Source: an uncultured delta proteobacterium
GTDB taxonomy: Bacteria; Myxococcota_A; Polyangia; Polyangiales; Polyangiaceae
NCBI GenBank assembly: GCA_963716725.1
Contig: CAVQUB010000005.1
Coordinates: forward strand, 256,001 to 320,000
DNA length: 64,000 nt
Direction: 5' to 3'
The position numbers were made by a program, and so were the translations under genes. The first letter of the stretch is position 1. The number at the start of each line of letters is the position of its first letter. The notes beneath the pieces are model-generated. The model had not been told where the DNA came from and did not search any database. It was given only the letters and a program-made list of their open reading frames with translations. Below are positions 1-36,640 of this stretch, one piece after another.

Positions 1-782
1 TGGGCGCCAACCTCTTCGGGGTCGTCGTCGCGGCGCAGCAGAAGCAGTGGGCCGAGCTCGAGAAGATGGTGAACGAGCTCCAGCAGGCCGTGCAGAGGCT
101 GAAGTACGCCAAGGTCCCGGTGGTCGCGGCGCCCTTCGGCATGGCCGTGGGCGGCGGGCTCGAGGTCTGCCTGGGCGCGGACGCCATCCAAGCCGCGGCC
201 GAGACCTACGCGGGCCTGGTCGAGGTCGGCGTGGGCCTGATCCCGGCCGGCGGCGGGTGCCTCAACCTGGTGTGGCGGGCCCTCGAGGGCGTGTCCGAGG
301 GCGCCGACGTCATCGTGCAGTCGCTGGTCGCCGCGGTGTTCAAGAACATCGCCATGGCCAACGTCGCCACCAGCGCGCTGATGGCCCAGGAGCTCGGTTA
401 TTTCCGCAAGACCGACGGCATCAGCTTCGACAAGGCGCGGGTGGCGGGCGATGCCAAGGCGCGGGCCATCGGCATGGCCGAGTCGGGCTACCACGCTCCG
501 GTGCCCAAGAGCTACGTGCTGCCGGGCGAGAGCGGTATCGCGACCATCTCGATGCTGGTGGACACCCTGGTCGCCGGCGGCTTCGCCACGGAGTACGACG
601 GCGTCATCGCGCGCAAGCTCGCCCGCATCCTGTGCGGCGGCGCCGCGGGGGCGGCGGGACCGGTGTCCGAGCAACGCATGTTGGACCTCGAGCGGGAGAC
701 CTTCCTCGCGCTCTGCGGTGAGCAACGGACCCTCGACCGCATGCAGCACATGCTGATGAACAACAAGCCGCTCCGGAACTAG
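1..782 (+). CDS. fadN: 3-hydroxyacyl-CoA dehydrogenase/enoyl-CoA hydratase (FadN-type), 3' part; starts before the window
   Basis: Frame open from the window edge (GANLFGVV...). Crotonase motifs PVVAAPFGMAVGGGLEV and YAGLVEVGVGLIPAGGG; typical C-terminus RMQHMLMNNKPLRN. Confidence 0.9.
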   Translation, partial: GANLFGVVVAAQQKQWAELEKMVNELQQAVQRLKYAKVPVVAAPFGMAVGGGLEVCLGADAIQAAAETYAGLVEVGVGLIPAGGGCLNLVWRALEGVSEGADVIVQSLVAAVFKNIAMANVATSALMAQELGYFRKTDGISFDKARVAGDAKARAIGMAESGYHAPVPKSYVLPGESGIATISMLVDTLVAGGFATEYDGVIARKLARILCGGAAGAAGPVSEQRMLDLERETFLALCGEQRTLDRMQHMLMNNKPLRN

Positions 783-847
783 TGCCGCGCGGCAGAAGTT
801 TCGCTGGTTTCTTTTCCGTGTGCGTGTCGTCGGTGTAGTGGGGTGAC

Positions 848-2001
848 ATGATCGACTACAGCGCGTTCGCGGGTCGAGCGCACGGTGGTCGTCCGACGGT
901 TCCGCTCGCGCTGAGGGCTGAAGAGCGCGCGCGGATCGAGGAGGCGTTGCGACCCGCCAGGGCGGAGCAGCGGCTGGTTCGTCGGGCGCAGGCCGTGTTG
1001 ATGATGGCGGACGGAGTGCCTGCGACGGACACCGCCCGGCTCCTCGGGGTGCACGTGCGCACGGTGGACGACTGGCGCAAGCGCTTCGACTGCGCGGCAC
1101 CTAGCGAGAGACTGGCGGACGTCCCGCGCTCGGGACGGCCGCCCTCTCTCTCTCGGACAACGTAGCGGCTCGAGTAGAAGCAGAAGCGTGTCGACCGCCG
1201 AGCGACGTCGGCGTGCCCGTCACGCACTGGTCAGCGTCGTTGCTTGGCGTGCACGTTCGCGCGCAAGGAATTCAGATCAGCGACCGGTCGGTGGGCCGCA
1301 TACTCAAGGATGCTGACCTGCAACCGCATCGGCAACAAATGTACCTGACTTCGCACGACGACGAGTTCAGGGGGAAGCGCGACGACGTGCTGCGCGTCTA
1401 CTACGAGACGCCAAAGAAGGAGCACATCGTGTGCGTCGACGAGAAGACCGGCATCCAGGCGCTCGAACGCCGCTACGCTGACATTCCGATGGTGGCCGGA
1501 CAGCCCGTCCGCCGCGAATTCGAGTACGTCCGCCATGGCACGCTCTGCTGGATGGGAGCGCTCGATGTCCGCCGCGGCAAGCCGTTCGGCTTCATCTCGG
1601 ACGGGCACGACAGCGACACCTTCGTCGAGCTACTCGACGTCATCGAGGCGGTCTACCCGCCGGGTCGTGGCCACATCATCATGGACAATCTCTCCGCCCA
1701 CGACACGCCCGACGTGAACGAGTGGTTTGACGAGCACCCACGCTGGACGCGCCACTTCACGCCGAAGCACGCTTCGTGGCTCAACCAGATCGAGTGCTGG
1801 TTCTCGATCCTCACGCGCCAACTTCTCGCACGAGGCTCGTTCACGTCAACCGACGACCTCGCGGCGAGGATCGACGCGTACGTCGCGTGGTATCTGCAGA
1901 CCGACCGACCCTTTCGCTGGTCGTACCGCCCCAAGTCGTGGGCCGAACCCAGAAGAATCCCCTCACTTTCTGCGAAGAAAGTCGCGGCTGTTTCGGAGTG
2001 A
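848..2001 (+). CDS. IS630 transposase split over two frames (HTH 848-1165; DDE domain in the -1 frame to 2001)
   Basis: HTH part ends in ...LADVPRSGRPP. The -1 frame continues DNVAARVEAEACRPP...THWS, then VCVDEKTGIQALER, EYVRHGT, IIMDNLSAH and SWLNQIECWFS (DDE). The frame switch lies in a CT dinucleotide run at ~1144-1154. Confidence 0.92.
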
Positions 2002-2018
2002 GGCCCGACCACACGGGG

Positions 2019-2514
2019 ATGGCACAGGAAGGGCGAAAGCTCGGAAGATTTGGGGATGGGACGGACGAGGTGATCGGTGCGCTGATCGAGGTGCATCGGC
2101 ATCTCGGTCCAGGGCTGATGGAATCCGCATATGAGGCCTGTCTATCTGCCGAGCTGTCCGAACGACGGCTCAAGTTCGAGCGGCAGCGACCGCTACCAAT
2201 CCGCTACAAAGGCGCACACCTTGACTGCGCCTATCGCCTCGACCTGGTCGCTTCCAGATCGTATCCTCCTGGAGCTCAAGGCGGTCGAGCGGCTGCTCCC
2301 GATTTACGAAGCGCAGGTCATCACCTATCTGCGTCTTTCGCGGTTGCCCGTCGGCCTGCTCGTGAACTTCAACGTGACCGCGCTCAGAAATGGCCTGCGG
2401 AGGCTAACGCCTGACCACCCCAAATCCTTCCGCTCTTCCGCCCTTCCTGTGAGAGCCCAAATGAGCGCAGGTCTCAGGGGCGAATCCACTCGAACTTCGG
2501 CCGCGCGGCACTAG
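2019..2514 (+). CDS. GxxExxY protein (PD-(D/E)xK nuclease fold), frameshifted near 2250
   Basis: EVHRHLGPGLMESAYEACL, YRLDLV, then in the +1 frame ILLELKAVERLLPIYEAQVITYLRLS..GLLVNFN..GLRRL. The stop TAG coincides with the right IS end. Confidence 0.88.
2023..2451. repeat. 33/34-bp imperfect inverted repeat bracketing the GxxExxY core (arms 2023-2055 and 2418-2451)
   Basis: Arm 1 CACAGGAAGGGCGAAAGCTCGGAAG-ATTTGGGG versus reverse complement of arm 2 CACAGGAAGGGCGGAAGAGCGGAAGGATTTGGGG: 30/34 aligned positions identical. Confidence 0.9.
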
Positions 2515-2615
2515 GTCTCCGGGGGGGGCCCTCGCTCCGGCGGCCGCCGCCGGCGAAGCTGGCGATCGCCAGGGCGCTGGCGGTGCAAGTCTTTGGATTT
2601 GCGGTGTCTTGGTGT

Positions 2616-2631
2616 TGGCGCGCGTGTTGCT
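2616..2631 (+). promoter_or_regulatory. Putative sigma-54 (-24/-12) promoter
   Basis: TGGCGC-GCGTG-TTGCT has the GG-N10-GC spacing and lies just upstream of an AGGAGG RBS (2642-2647) and the ATG at 2655. Confidence 0.55.
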
Positions 2632-2654
2632 CCGCGCCGGCAGGAGGAAGACCA

Positions 2655-2993
2655 ATGACCCAGATCCAAGAGAGCGACCTCGAGATCCGCACCCAAGAGC
2701 GCCTCGCCCGCGACCCCCAGGCCCGTCGAGAGCTGCTCTGGCTGATGGCAATGCTCGACGACGATCAGCCGCGCGCTCGCGAGCTCGAGGGGCTCGACGC
2801 CGGCATCCGCCGCCGCCTCGCGCCGCTGGTTTCGAGGTGCTGGCACGCGCTGCACGCTCGCAACGACGGCTCGACGGCGGGCCGCGAACTCTACGCCCGT
2901 GCCTGGACCGAACGCTTCGCGCACCATGCCGCCCGCTATCGAGGGGTGCGGTGTGGCTGCGCCCAATGCCGCGAAGGAGCCGTGGGCGCGTGA
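2655..2993 (+). CDS. Small hypothetical protein with C-terminal CxCxxC motif
   Basis: AGGAGG RBS, GC-rich third codon positions, ends ...RCGCAQCREGAVGA. Confidence 0.6.
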   Translation: MTQIQESDLEIRTQERLARDPQARRELLWLMAMLDDDQPRARELEGLDAGIRRRLAPLVSRCWHALHARNDGSTAGRELYARAWTERFAHHAARYRGVRCGCAQCREGAVGA

Positions 2994-3046
2994 TGGCGCC
3001 TCGGGCGAGTGACGGCGCCTCGGGCGAGTGACGGCGCCTCGCGCGG
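2990..3046 (+). repeat. 19-bp tandem repeat x3 (GTGACGGCGCCTCGGGCGA)
   Basis: Units at 2990-3008, 3009-3027 and 3028-3046 with 1-2 mismatches. Confidence 0.9.
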
Positions 3047-3418
3047 TGCTGTATCGCGTTCCTCAACGCGCGCGACGCGAAGCTGAAGGCTTGCATCCAA
3101 CGCTCGAGCGCAGGCGACCTGCGGCTCTGTTCGGTGGTGAAGGCCGAGCCCCCGCCCGGCGCCCGCAACGGCTCGCGCGCTGCTGATAACCTCCGCTCGC
3201 TCGCTCAGTTCTTCGACGCCTTCGAGTCGTTGCCCTTCGATGACGAAGTCGCGGAAGCGTACGGCGTGCTCCGCACCAAGCTGCGGCGATCCGGGCGGCC
3301 CATCGGCGCGAACGACATGCTCATCGCGGCGATCGCGCTGGTGAATCGCGCCACCTTGGTGACTCGGGACGACGACGAGTTCCTGCGCGTGCCGGGGCTG
3401 CAAGTCGAGGTCTGGTAG
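3047..3418 (+). pseudogene. vapC: VapC/PIN toxin remnant lacking its N-terminus
   Basis: CIAFLN...LCSVVKAE...LPFDDEVAEAYG...GRPIGANDMLIAAIAL...LVTRDDDEFLRVPGLQVEVW. No start codon or LDTN motif: an in-frame TGA lies at 3029-3031, inside the tandem repeat. No vapB upstream. Confidence 0.8.
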
Positions 3419-3459
3419 CCCATCGGGGCCGGCTGGAGCGGCGAAGTCGCGAACGTGTT

Positions 3460-4023
3460 ATGCCCGCCCGCATGCTGGGGCGAAGCGGTCTGCTATTGGC
3501 GGTTCTGATCTGCGGCTGCGGCGGGGCCGGCGCGCCTGCCCCCGACCCGAAGACGCCGGACGAAATCGAGTCTCCGACGCCCCCGGGCGACGCGCCGCCC
3601 AGCTCCGAGTCGCCGAGCGAGGCGAAGGACCCGGACGCCACGCCACCGAAGGACGAAGCGCCCGCGGCCGCAGTCGAGCCCCTGAGCGCCCAAGATCTCG
3701 AGGCGGTCCTGCAGCAGCTGATGGATGACCCTGAAATGTCCGAGTACCTGAAGCTGAAGAAACCAGGTCGGTTGCCGCTCAGGGTCTCCGGCGAAGGCCT
3801 TCCCGCCAAGCTCTCGGTCATCATCGGATCGCACGACCTGAAGGTCGTCGGTGAGCCGAAGTCGAAGAAGGATCCGGTGCTCGTCTTCACCAAGATCGAG
3901 CGCGACGGCGAGTCGGTGCGCCTGCGCTACCGCTTCGACGCCGAGGCCATCACCGGCTCCGCGGTCATCCACCGCAAGGGTGGTACGTGGCGGCTTGGCG
4001 CGAACCGCGTGTTGGGTAAGTGA
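3460..4023 (+). CDS. Hypothetical lipoprotein with Pro-rich linker
   Basis: Hydrophobic signal ending ...VLICGC, then a P/S/E-rich linker and a small globular C-terminal domain. Confidence 0.7.
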   Translation: MPARMLGRSGLLLAVLICGCGGAGAPAPDPKTPDEIESPTPPGDAPPSSESPSEAKDPDATPPKDEAPAAAVEPLSAQDLEAVLQQLMDDPEMSEYLKLKKPGRLPLRVSGEGLPAKLSVIIGSHDLKVVGEPKSKKDPVLVFTKIERDGESVRLRYRFDAEAITGSAVIHRKGGTWRLGANRVLGK

Positions 4024-4764: not shown

Positions 4765-6435
4765 TCACCTGAGCCCGACAATGCGGCCGTCGACCACGTC
4801 GATATTCTCCGACGCGGGGTGCTTGGGCAGGCCGGGCATGCGCATGATCTCGCCGGTGAGCGCCACCAAGAAGCCCGCGCCCGCGTTGATCTGAATATTG
4901 CGCACGGTCACGTCGAAATTCGTGGGGCGACCGCGCAAGCTCGGGTTGTCCGAGAGCGAGTTCTGGGTCTTGGCCATGCAGATCGGTAAGCCCGCGTAGC
5001 CGAGTCGTTCGACGTCCTCCAGATCGCGCTTGGCCGCCGCGGTGAGCTCGACGTCGTTCGCGCCGTAGATGCGCTGGCAGATGGTTCGGATCTTGTCCAC
5101 CACCGGAGAGCCCCAGTCGTAGAGCGGCTTGAAGGGCACTGGCGTGGCCTCCGCGTGCGCGATGAGCTTGCGCGCCAAATCGAGGGCGCCTTCGCCGCCG
5201 CGTGCGTGATGATCGGTGATCGCAAAGGGAATGCCCAGCTTCTCGCAGCAGCGCCGCACCACGGCCATCTCTTCGTCCGAGTCGCCGCCAAAGCGGTTCA
5301 GCGCGATCACCGGGGCTTCGCCGAAGCAGCGGATGTTCTCGATGTGCTTCTCGAGGTTCGGCAGGCCCGCTTCGACCGCTCGAGCGTCGGGCTTCGAGAG
5401 GTTGTCCTTGCTGACGCCGCCATGCATTTTCAGCGCGCGGATGGTGGCCACCAGCACCACCGCCGCCGTGTCGAGGCCCGCGCCGGCGCATTTGATGTCG
5501 AAGAATTTCTCAGCGCCGAGATCGAAGCCGAAGCCCGCCTCTGTCACCGCCCAATCCGAGAAATGCATCGCCATGCGCGTGGCCAAGACGCTGTTGCAGC
5601 CGTGGGCGATGTTGGCGAAAGGACCGCCGTGGACGAAGCAGGGGGTGCCTTCCAGGGTCTGCACCAGGTTGGGCATGAGGGCGTCCTTCAAGAGCGCGAG
5701 CACCGCGCCGGTCGCCTTCAAGTCCCCCGCCGTGACGGGCTTTCCCTCGAAGGTGAAGGCCACCAAGGTGCGATCGATGCGGCGCCGCAGATCGTCGTAG
5801 CCGTCGGCCAGGCACAGCATCGCCATGATCTCCGAAGCGGCGGTGATGTCGAAGCCCGTCTCGCGCGGCACGCCCTGCATCACGCCGCCGAGGCCGATGA
5901 TGATGTTGCGCAGCGCGCGCTCGTTCATATCGATGACGCGACGCCAGAGCACTCGGCGCGGGTTGATTTGCACGCCCGAGGTGAAGTGAATGTGGTTGTC
6001 GAGGACGGCAGCGAGCAGGTTGTGAGCGGCGGTGATGGCGTGGAAGTCGCCGGTGAAGTGCAGGTTGATTGAGTCCGCCGGCATCAACTGGCTGTAGCCG
6101 CCGCCGGTCGCACCTCCCTTGACGCCCATGCACGGCCCGAGGGAGGGCTCGCGCAGCGCGAGGCACACCGACTCGCCCAACTTCGACAGGGCCTGGCCCA
6201 GCCCGATGGTCGTCGTGGTCTTGCCCTCGCCCGCCGGAGTCGGAGTGATGGCGCTCACCAGCACCAGCTTCGACGGACGCGGGCGCTTGCGAGCCTCGGA
6301 GAGCACCGAGAGCTCGACCTTGGCCTTGTCACGGCCGTAGGGGATCAGGCGCTCGTGGGAGATCCCCAGCTGGTCGGCGATCTCCGAGATGGGGCGGGGC
6401 GTGAACGAGCGTGCAATCTCTGCGTCCGTCTTCAT
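4765..6435 (-). CDS. fhs: Formate--tetrahydrofolate ligase
   Basis: ITPTPAGEGKTTT, KGGATGGGYSQ, HGGPFANIAHGCNS, EAGFGFDLGAEKF, IMRMPGLP. Confidence 0.98.
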   Translation of the reverse strand: MKTDAEIARSFTPRPISEIADQLGISHERLIPYGRDKAKVELSVLSEARKRPRPSKLVLVSAITPTPAGEGKTTTTIGLGQALSKLGESVCLALREPSLGPCMGVKGGATGGGYSQLMPADSINLHFTGDFHAITAAHNLLAAVLDNHIHFTSGVQINPRRVLWRRVIDMNERALRNIIIGLGGVMQGVPRETGFDITAASEIMAMLCLADGYDDLRRRIDRTLVAFTFEGKPVTAGDLKATGAVLALLKDALMPNLVQTLEGTPCFVHGGPFANIAHGCNSVLATRMAMHFSDWAVTEAGFGFDLGAEKFFDIKCAGAGLDTAAVVLVATIRALKMHGGVSKDNLSKPDARAVEAGLPNLEKHIENIRCFGEAPVIALNRFGGDSDEEMAVVRRCCEKLGIPFAITDHHARGGEGALDLARKLIAHAEATPVPFKPLYDWGSPVVDKIRTICQRIYGANDVELTAAAKRDLEDVERLGYAGLPICMAKTQNSLSDNPSLRGRPTNFDVTVRNIQINAGAGFLVALTGEIMRMPGLPKHPASENIDVVDGRIVGLR

Positions 6436-35284: not shown

Positions 35285-36640
35285 TCAGAGCAACACGAAA
35301 TCGTCGGCTTCGGCGGCTTCTTGGGCGACGACGCTGGTGGTTTCCTCGTCCCGTTTGACCGCCAGCTCGTACAGCTCGGCCAAAATCGCCGGGTGCTCCT
35401 TGATCAGCTCGAGGAACCGGTCGCGGGGCAGGTGCAGGGTGACGGTCGGGCAGGCGGCCATCACGTTGGCGGTGGACGGGCGACGCAGGACCAGCGCCAC
35501 TTCGCCCACGACCTCTCCCACGCCGAGCTTTGCCAGGAGCGTTCGGTCTTCGCCGTCGTCGTGCATGACGACGACCTCCCCCGACGCGATCAGATGCAGG
35601 CCGTCGGAGGCCTGCCCCTGACTGATCAAGAGTTCGCCGTCTTCGTAGGTCCGCGTGACGAATCGATCGACCAGCGCCGGGCGCGCGGCGGGCTTCACTG
35701 CGCTCAAGATGTTGCTGGTGCGGACCAAGTTCTCGACCATTCGGCGGCGACAGTGATCGGCGAACTCCTGACCGACGGCGGGTTGCCGCGCCGCAACCGC
35801 ATCGAGGGCGTCCTTGCGGGCCACCAAGATGATGCTGGGGCGCGCTGCCACGACGCTGGCCGCCCGCGGGGCGCGCGAGAGCAGGGCCATCTCGCCAAAG
35901 AGCGCGCCGCTGCCGAGGCGGGCGAGCAAGAGGGACTCGCTGCCTTCTCCTTGGCGGCAGACTTCGAGCTCCCCGCGCGCGAGAATGTACGCTTCCGCGC
36001 CCGGTGTTCCTTCGTCGATGAGCACCGCACCGGTTGCGACCGTCTTGACCTCGAAGACGTCCAGCATGGCGCGCAGCGCGGATCGATCGAGGGCGCTGAA
36101 TAGAGGCTGCGGAGCGACCTTGGCACGCGTTGGCCCCGAGGCTGACTCGCGCTCGCGGAGCTTCTGGGCTTCGTGCACCAGCTCTTGCGCCTTGCCGACC
36201 AACGCCTTGCCCGAGAGCGCGGCCGGTAGCGGCTGAAATGCTTCGGCCGAGTGGGGCAGCTCCGGGGGCGAGGCGCCCGTGCTCAGCAGCTGCGACGAGC
36301 CTTTGCAGAAGGTCTTCGCGATGGCATCGCGGTGTTTGGCCGCGTCGTGGCCCAGCGTCGCGAGATCGCAGCACGCTGCAACGGCCAGTGGCAGGTTGCC
36401 GATGTCGATGGCCCGGGCGACGGCCAGCTCCAGCCCCTCGATGCCGACCTCGCGGCGGCCCGCCGCTGCCAGTAGACGAGCGGTGATGATCAGCCCCAGC
36501 GGCCCCGCGGGCTCGCTCTTCACCAGCGCAGCTCCCCAGCGCAGCGCGGCGTCGAGCTCGTCGGCGAGGGAGAGCGCCATCGCGCGATCGGCGGGGCTGT
36601 CAGCCTGCGGCGTACCCGGCAAACTCGGGGGCGCGGTCAT
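35285..36640 (-). CDS. Protein with two tandem cyclic-nucleotide-binding domains and a helical N-terminus
   Basis: FGEMALL...PRAASVVA and VGEVALV...PSTANVMA. Confidence 0.88.
   Translation of the reverse strand: MTAPPSLPGTPQADSPADRAMALSLADELDAALRWGAALVKSEPAGPLGLIITARLLAAAGRREVGIEGLELAVARAIDIGNLPLAVAACCDLATLGHDAAKHRDAIAKTFCKGSSQLLSTGASPPELPHSAEAFQPLPAALSGKALVGKAQELVHEAQKLRERESASGPTRAKVAPQPLFSALDRSALRAMLDVFEVKTVATGAVLIDEGTPGAEAYILARGELEVCRQGEGSESLLLARLGSGALFGEMALLSRAPRAASVVAARPSIILVARKDALDAVAARQPAVGQEFADHCRRRMVENLVRTSNILSAVKPAARPALVDRFVTRTYEDGELLISQGQASDGLHLIASGEVVVMHDDGEDRTLLAKLGVGEVVGEVALVLRRPSTANVMAACPTVTLHLPRDRFLELIKEHPAILAELYELAVKRDEETTSVVAQEAAEADDFVLL

Follow-up and report, generated by a model that had tools for sequence, protein, structure and literature searches.

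A GxxExxY nuclease gene between hairpin arms, carried inside nested mobile layers of a Polyangiaceae genome

What is a small nuclease gene doing between two long complementary arms, and which part of the surrounding DNA has multiplied it? The question is raised by a locus near the beginning of a 64,000-nucleotide stretch of an uncultured delta proteobacterium of the Polyangiaceae (GenBank assembly GCA_963716725.1, contig CAVQUB010000005.1, positions 256,001 to 320,000 of the forward strand), hereafter the window, where a gene of the GxxExxY family is bracketed by its own inverted repeat. We show here that the locus consists of three mobile layers, one inside another, an anatomy that we hold with high confidence. 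The innermost layer (2016-2458) is a cassette formed by a small PD-(D/E)xK nuclease gene between inverted arms of 8-nt units, and the middle layer (1950-2477) is read as a 528-bp miniature element with outer inverted repeats of its own and a 9-bp target duplication, which inserted itself among the final codons of a transposase gene of the IS630 family. The unit that moves here is in all likelihood the resulting composite insertion sequence (IS, 779-2514), cut and pasted into CTAG by the IS630 transposase, a process that has left about 32 copies, the majority of which lost internal sequence and are non-autonomous. As an explanation of the whole, nested layers with the cassette hitch-hiking on an IS630-type element is the one that we strongly favor.

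The inverted repeat that the initial annotation reported around the gene is real. An inverted-repeat search delimits two 44-nt arms that are 77% complementary, a purine-rich arm 1 at 2016-2059 and a pyrimidine-rich arm 2 at 2415-2458 (both listed on the forward strand), and in their cores (2023-2055 and 2418-2451) 30 of 34 columns pair with a single bulge, giving a score of 45, whereas 1000 mononucleotide shuffles of these flanks average 16.6 and never exceed 26. The units within the arms recur every 8 nt (CAGGAAGG / GCGAAAGC / TCGGAAGA), in keeping with the sub-repeats first described. The foot of arm 1 holds the ATG at 2019 and the GLRR motif of the protein lies directly 5' of arm 2, both as originally placed, while comparison of the left and right IS ends confirms that the arms are unrelated to them. 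Alignment of all 32 copies in the genome reveals nearly unchanged arm sequences. We recovered 133 arm matches from the genome, every one of them inside a known copy, and outside these copies only 18 chance 13-15-mers matching the arms; the arms are thus not a common dispersed repeat of the REP (repetitive extragenic palindromic) kind in this genome. Before one cassette copy, on another contig of the same genome (C14:36298-36450), the arm-1 region occurs three times in tandem about 75 nt apart (blastn matches at 36298-36337, 36376-36411 and 36450), a local arm amplification.

The gene between the arms is a GxxExxY gene (PF13366, PDDEXK_3; TIGR04256) split over two frames. Its N-terminal part, in the frame of the ATG, spans 2019-2258 (PF13366 8e-21, profile positions 4-67; TIGR04256 6.2e-22), and its C-terminal part, in the +1 frame and open to the TAG at 2512-2514, spans 2260-2414 (PF13366 9.7e-13, profile positions 71-116), both on the forward strand. 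The two halves score 78.2 and 49.7 bits with TIGR04256 (curated cut-off 35) and 75 and 49 bits with PF13366 (cut-off 22). An alignment of the 32 copies locates the +1 frameshift at 2251-2256 on the forward strand, in a complex substitution that leaves the window copy one base longer than its intact sisters and is not a homopolymer slip. The break falls between the Asp and the Glu-x-Lys, leaving the window copy without an uninterrupted D...E-x-K open reading frame (ORF). When the 32 nuclease genes of the genome are read by eye, only three carry the intact allele (C13:340938, C20:94431 and C33:69453), seven are frame-restored at a second site and 22 are truncated; the nuclease gene of the window is a pseudogene, like most of the other copies. 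In the seven restored genes a change of +11 nt or +2 nt brings back the downstream frame and leaves the middle scrambled, restorations that may reflect either chance or selection for translation through to arm 2. Two independent second-site changes are seen, an 11-nt duplication and a 2-nt insertion, with a scrambled middle that includes the catalytic Asp (copies C20:34365, C21:53836, C12:117685, C15:516467, C32:143340 and C1:35628, of the 643-bp class described below, and copies C7:218765 and C5:331195). In the window itself, the +1 frame forms an ORF (2131-2514) that reads on across arm 2 and the right end of the IS630 element as far as the TAG of CTAG. The C-terminus that the IS630 transposase had before the insert displaced it survives as the last 10 codons of this ORF.

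An AlphaFold2 model of an intact sister copy (predicted local distance difference test score 90.4) finds its best structural matches exclusively among PD-(D/E)xK nucleases, all of them weak (Z 7.5 for Cas4, 4ic1; Z 6.1 for Hjc, 1gef). A wide VIA-align search returned generic PD-(D/E)xK rows at Z <= 7.5 that single out neither a resolvase, nor a Cas4, nor a restriction type; Foldseek of the model against the PDB gave nothing at E <= 0.001, and a PDB sequence search with the protein gave no relative. The family and fold first assigned to the gene are thus upheld, with profile scores above cut-off and a modeled fold that is that of a PD-(D/E)xK nuclease, one that does not specify the kind of nuclease. 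A second, distant GxxExxY gene of the same genome (L004, C14:2117-2464) is intact and 48% identical, and flanks of 320 nt reveal no significant inverted repeat around it (score 26, shuffle maximum 27).

The outermost layer emerges from a blastn search of the whole genome (7.9 Mb in 35 contigs) with window positions 1-4000, in which the limits of a genomic repeat fall at 779 and 2514. These bound a composite IS630-family element of 1736 bp on the forward strand, with a left terminal inverted repeat at 779-802 (forward strand) that begins with the CTAG target and matches the reverse complement of the right end over about 24 nt, and a right terminal inverted repeat at 2491-2514 (reverse strand) that ends in CTAG. 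Between them, and on the forward strand, lie an N-terminal transposase ORF with a helix-turn-helix (HTH) domain (848-1165; Pfam HTH_23 6.5e-12, HTH_28, HTH_29) and a catalytic transposase ORF (1213-2001; Pfam DDE_3 4.5e-24), the last 17 codons of which (1950-2001) come from the inserted unit. IS630-type elements insert at the TA within CTAG, and CTAG is present at all 27 left ends, with unrelated flanks, and, in an alignment read by eye, CACTAG at 29 of 32 right ends, with flanks beyond that differ in every copy; no empty target site of the composite element was found that would show a duplicated TA. The genome holds 27 pairs of left and right ends, five of full length (1736 bp) and nine of about 1067 bp, together with four of 1254 bp, one of 1240 bp, six of about 643 bp, one of 604 bp and one other. 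The right-hand 500 bp of the element exist in about 32 near-identical copies, and every deletion class retains 2012-2514, cassette included.

All arm copies lie inside IS630-family elements, and because every copy shares the same IS junctions and the same decayed outer repeats of the insert, the cassette has spread by IS630 transposition rather than by independent movement. In this genome, then, the cassette multiplies only as a passenger of an IS630-type element, and mostly in broken form. The initial annotation had proposed instead an autonomous element driven by its nuclease, with ends that pair in single-stranded DNA. Three genes are indeed intact (on C13, C20 and C33), the arms have stayed almost unchanged in 32 copies, and the gene-less hairpins and site polymorphism seen at the level of the family (below) point to hairpin mobility; yet neither an arm nor a cassette copy occurs outside IS630 ends, the junctions and decayed repeats are common to all copies, and 29 of the 32 genes are broken or scrambled. 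Autonomous movement in this genome is accordingly a claim that we do not retain, and one that we judge very improbable.

Material from other samples bears on the outer layer as well. Half or more of the sampled words are contained in each of 18 DNA metagenome runs, and the one clear RNA run (X20) yields three contigs at a depth of 2-3. Two joints on one contig of the RNA library, one linking 1181 to 1849 as in a deletion derivative and one linking 1933 to 2025 with 14 other letters between, indicate that deletion derivatives of the composite IS exist in other samples; contigs of this kind can neither show RNA ends nor prove transcription, and therefore give no evidence on RNA processing. When runs X1, X13 and X20 are compared with window 700-2600, the contigs of two DNA metagenomes cover the cassette several times more deeply than the transposase gene.

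The middle layer becomes apparent once the composite element is compared with relatives that lack it. We sought IS630 relatives in 151 genomes of the order, and the closest two (G068 and G135, 68% and 63% identical) are both without the insert and have the 9-bp stretch once. Homology of the window to them stops at 1949 and resumes at about 2478, and their transposase ORF runs into the right end, stopping at the TAG of CTAG. Once 1950-2477 and one 9-bp copy are taken out of the window, the transposase frame runs on to the terminal TAG and closes with the two residues that also end the protein in both relatives. The inserted unit (1950-2477, 528 bp, forward strand), a miniature-element remnant carrying the GxxExxY cassette, aligns end to end with 528-bp units of a genome of the same genus (G006), with homology ending at the outer repeats. 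In the window these repeats are decayed (left, 1950-1970 on the forward strand, aligning with the perfect 21-bp end of G006; right, 2456-2477 on the reverse strand), and they are flanked by two copies of the 9-bp sequence, assigned to neither strand, at 1941-1949 (GGCCGAACC) and 2478-2486 (GGGCGAATC), which agree at 7 of 9 bases.

A perfect 21-bp inverted repeat delimits the G006 units and occurs at 24 ends in that genome (control 0), all belonging to GxxExxY units or to fragments of such units. Five pairs lie 380-681 bp apart and the rest are fragments; of the pairs, three have perfect and two imperfect 9-bp duplications on reading the flanks by eye. The genome of the window holds no match to this 21-bp end pattern at three or fewer mismatches. 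An empty site for one G006 unit (L038) was sought in five genomes of the same genus, where no flank homology was found and only a 103-nt gene match. In three metagenome contigs, L201 (1891-1988), L203 and L207 (2001-2098), two G006-type 21-bp ends face each other 77 nt apart, minimal forms of the element without a GxxExxY cassette.

A further genome, G171, provides a parent for a comparable unit. It has another end, of 23 bp, at 73 occurrences (control 1), most of them paired about 555-580 bp apart, and all six units checked have perfect 9-bp duplications (flanks read by eye). Two 2.0-kb pairs enclose a 438-residue DDE_Tnp_1 transposase (PF01609, 1.3e-9) with GxxExxY on the opposite strand, and the 579-bp short units are internal deletions of this 2.0-kb element. 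Because of this analogy and the 9-bp duplication, the reading that we prefer for the middle layer is a miniature derivative of a cassette-carrying, putatively IS4-type element; a possible likeness of the G006-type end to IS10 ends plays no part in this reading. The gene and its arms do make up a discrete unit that recurs across the family (as shown next); the natural unit at this locus is larger, namely the insert 1950-2477 within the IS 779-2514.

Is the arrangement of gene and arms peculiar to this lineage? We scanned contigs with a four-sequence alignment and obtained 80 loci, with relatives 55-89% identical, from Planctomycetota, Myxococcota, Acidobacteriota, Cyanobacteria, Chloroflexota, Nitrospirota, Verrucomicrobiota, several proteobacterial classes and an ANME-1 archaeon. 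Arms were called at the 75 loci with enough flank, wherever the inverted repeat of the flanks exceeded all 30 shuffles. Homologous GxxExxY genes carry flanking arms of their own at 62 of the 75, in many phyla, and five of the 13 misses gain arms further out with 320-nt flanks, for 67 of 75. The arms of the family comprise three or four units with a period of 8-9 nt, most of which follow the pattern C-R-C-N-R-A-G, and often begin TTCACC and finish GGTGAA. The unit sequence differs from locus to locus and the two arms within a locus match: pairs of own arms have a median score of 40 versus 17 for 450 mismatched pairs (95th percentile 36), with 45 of 75 own pairs above this percentile. In the lineage of the window (eight sequences, two pairs among them close kin), 85.1% of alignment cells pair as compared with 78.1% after shuffling, 12 of 33 pairs have changed on both sides, and neither value is reached in any of 500 shuffles; slid controls pair at 42-55%. 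The arms thus co-vary, paired but divergent in sequence, and a gene between co-varying arms is a hallmark of the GxxExxY family across phyla. Neither observation that the initial annotation named as fatal to its reading, homologues lacking arms or arms dispersed as a REP-like repeat, is borne out. Chance complementarity, or a generic REP-like repeat that happens to lie beside the gene, might be entertained for a genome of 68% G+C in which purine-rich tracts are common. This reading, to which we attach negligible weight, is ruled out by the arm score of 45 (maximum 26 in 1000 shuffles), by the lack of arm copies elsewhere and by the compensatory changes in relatives.

Arms that pair could act in RNA or in DNA. 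The initial annotation had also suggested an element resembling an intervening sequence (IVS), in which the cassette would be read through from the upstream gene (here the IS630 transposase), an arm duplex of about 33 bp would hide the start codon, and RNase III would excise the cassette as it does the IVS of 23S rRNA. Several features are of this kind. When 1950-2477 is folded as RNA, the arms pair in the minimum-energy as well as in the centroid structure (z = -3.9, none of 100 shuffles as stable), the ATG lies within arm 1, and a promoter scan of 1850-2600 returned no sigma-70-like site and one terminator-like site (minus strand, 1980-1958) within shuffle expectation. The gene is moreover co-oriented with its neighbors. 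Of the diverse loci, 35 are flanked on each side by a Pfam-supported gene; in 30 of these both neighbors share the strand of the nuclease, in two both lie opposite and three are mixed. Where the two neighbors lie on one strand, the nuclease thus agrees with them at 30 of 32 loci, or 19 of 21 distinct sites (p = 2e-4). These sites lie within operons, such as those of liv permeases, nuoM/N-type genes, MoxR-DUF58, oppB/C and E1-E2, among others. An IVS of like build, excised by RNase III, is described from Coxiella in the accessible part of PMC4990558. The mismatches point elsewhere, since the arms of 56 non-redundant loci contain 37 of G·U type, 54 of A·C type and 109 of transversion type, without wobble tolerance on the sense strand. 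An RNA stem under selection should favor G·U, and as no G·U excess is found, a role of the arms in RNA only is not supported. The 7-bp stem with its GCGA loop just upstream (1965-1982, forward strand), the GNRA hairpin of the initial annotation, is present in the sequence and forms in the minimum-energy RNA fold, but it is not conserved in the same-genus homologues of G006; and an Rfam search of 700-2700 gave no family match at E <= 1. Regulation of the ORF likewise does not explain the gene-less hairpins, the solo arm and the unrelated unit types of similar spacers described next, and we consider an IVS-like RNA element unlikely.

Hairpins of this kind also exist without the gene. In genome G172 the arm pattern of one locus (L129) has 77 matches (control 0), which by their coordinates form about 21 convergent, gene-less pairs 55-100 nt apart and one pair 431 nt apart that holds the gene. 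The spacer between aspS and the arginase gene, a locus that 39 of the 41 genomes in a single Terriglobales-type family possess (a tally that includes two unpublished genomes, whose sequences play no part here), is polymorphic: it is empty, at 5-33 nt, in G186, G188 and G212; it holds a gene cassette in G173, G174, G179, G180 and G184; it holds gene-less hairpins of other unit types in G177, G193 and G203; and it holds a solo arm in G206. The gene-less spacer hairpins (L195 of G193, L196 of G177, L198 of G203) are made of quite different 8-9-nt units, for example an array of the GTCATTGAG type, and the solo arm (L193 of G206) is purine-rich and stands directly before the arginase ATG. Several kinds of hairpin seem to have hot spots in spacers just 3' of stop codons.

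A DNA-level role can itself be read in two ways. The arms might be the terminal repeats of a conventional transposon moved by a transposase in trans, with GxxExxY as interchangeable cargo (for example a defence or toxin gene). Two conventional IS families do carry and multiply the gene, IS630-type here and IS4-type in G171; arrays of short repeated units are typical of protein-binding sites, and the absent G·U bias fits recognition of duplex DNA. Transposases, however, account for only one of 150 flanking ORFs in the diverse sample, inspection by eye reveals no target duplication at the arm boundaries, and GxxExxY stays between its arms at 62-67 of 75 loci although the arm sequence changes. 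Free cargo is distinctly unlikely because a single gene family sits between divergent arms across phyla. The other possibility is that the arms of live cassettes serve their nuclease as its own site of DNA recognition and structure, much as in systems that pair REP sequences with a REP-associated tyrosine transposase (RAYT), a role that we favor among those considered and put at slightly below an even chance. Gene-bearing cassettes and gene-less hairpins would then relate to each other as RAYT genes do to REP sequences.

We propose more tentatively, as a possibility short of the preceding one, that GxxExxY cassettes and gene-less hairpins of the same units constitute a distinct, cross-phylum class of selfish DNA. 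A minimal PD-(D/E)xK nuclease would recognize the arm arrays of its cassette, probably in the form of DNA hairpins or cruciforms, and would drive the spread of arms or their retention in operon spacers. ORF-bearing 23S rRNA IVSs would belong to the same architectural class, having landed in rRNA, and conventional ISs (IS630-type here, IS4-type in G171) would capture cassettes repeatedly, perhaps because the cassette aids cut-and-paste elements.

Several observations weigh against the account of nested layers with arms that serve their own nuclease. At the locus itself, the 9-bp duplication is imperfect (the 7 of 9 bases noted above) and the outer repeats of the insert are decayed. A parent transposase for ends of the G006 and window type is absent from G006 (73% complete), and among 14 stretches from a metagenome scan for a G006-type parent none of six candidate ORFs is a transposase. 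That the five independent deletion classes all kept the cassette falls short of significance on its own (chance about 0.11) and is not counted here as a sign of function. Across the family, no target duplication is visible by eye at the arm boundaries of diverse loci, and the co-orientation with flanking genes fits an RNA-level role at least as well. As to the enzyme, we know of no PD-(D/E)xK protein of GxxExxY size that moves DNA, and the fold search returned only generic nuclease matches (best Z 7.5). We nevertheless favor the nested reading, in which this genome carries the cassette as a passenger.

Known systems resemble one or another layer without coinciding with any. REP/RAYT "REPtrons" consist of a small HUH Y1 enzyme gene (TnpA-REP) flanked by inverted, hairpin-forming REP copies. 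They share with the cassette a single small enzyme gene between inverted hairpin repeats and no obvious target duplication, and with G172 the dispersal of the repeat in far more gene-less copies between genes. They differ in having an HUH rather than a PD-(D/E)xK fold and one palindrome rather than arms of three or four units every 8-9 nt, and the genome of the window, unlike theirs, is without gene-less arm copies. The element 779-2514 matches the IS630/Tc1/mariner superfamily in its HTH and DDE_3 domains, 24-nt ends, CTAG target and deletion copies moved in trans, and departs from a plain IS630 in that its passenger is a nested mobile unit that cut off the last codons of the transposase. The G171 and G006 units resemble IS4-type (DDE_Tnp_1) elements in their perfect 21-23-bp ends and 9-bp duplications, and those of G171 also in being numerous short products of internal deletion in a 2.0-kb parent; unlike the usual IS4-type miniatures, the short derivatives of both genomes keep a gene (GxxExxY).

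A further likeness in build is to the 23S rRNA IVS with its S23p ORF. In the accessible part of PMC4990558, the Coxiella burnetii IVS is given a 28-bp stem of terminal inverted repeats, excision by RNase III and three tandem heptamers before a small ORF, and its authors regard such sequences as selfish and of unknown origin. To the extent of that account, IVS and cassette are both units of about 430-530 nt with complementary ends and a stem of about 28-33 bp, both have short tandem repeats in an AG-rich 5' arm before a small ORF (heptamers in the IVS, 8-nt units in the cassette), and in both the ORF is often decaying. The IVS, by contrast, sits in helix 25 or 45 of 23S rRNA whereas the cassette sits in an IS and elsewhere in operon spacers; its ORF encodes the four-helix S23p whereas that of the cassette encodes the PD-(D/E)xK protein GxxExxY; and it is cut by RNase III whereas the mismatch spectrum of the cassette does not point to RNA pairing.

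The surroundings of the composite IS in the window hold features of their own. A PIN-domain ORF (3134-3418, forward strand; Pfam 1.1e-10) lies 3' of an ORF of 112 residues without a Pfam match (2655-2993, forward strand), and the two, next to the IS, may form a toxin-antitoxin pair. From their translations, we take a long ORF at 4765-6435 (reverse strand) to be a putative formate-tetrahydrofolate ligase gene, and the ORF end at 3-782 (forward strand) is presumably that of an enoyl-CoA hydratase/3-hydroxyacyl-CoA dehydrogenase.

What the locus means for the family follows from how common these proteins are, GxxExxY/PF13366 being frequent across bacteria and present in some archaea. In the only survey naming the family that we found, its function is entered as "Unknown" (PMC3424549, in its accessible part), and the mention of GxxExxY in the accessible part of PMC8934634 concerns a mis-call of cas4. 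Our literature search, which left subscription journals and supplements outside its reach, found no description of repeats around GxxExxY genes, so that the hairpin-bracketed GxxExxY cassette is apparently a widespread kind that has gone undescribed. For annotation, the roughly 32 "GxxExxY" and "IS630" fragments of this genome amount to one composite repeat. The window is also a natural experiment, in which a dated insertion into an IS630 transposase gene can be read with the empty state kept in relatives, and in which the cassette is carried by two cut-and-paste IS families unrelated to each other, both of which have multiplied short derivatives that retain it. Together, the layout of co-varying arms, the gene-less hairpins and the spacer polymorphism give the family a concrete, testable substrate, namely its own arms, and the layout ties GxxExxY to two old puzzles, the origin of the 23S rRNA IVS and the spread of REP-like hairpins.

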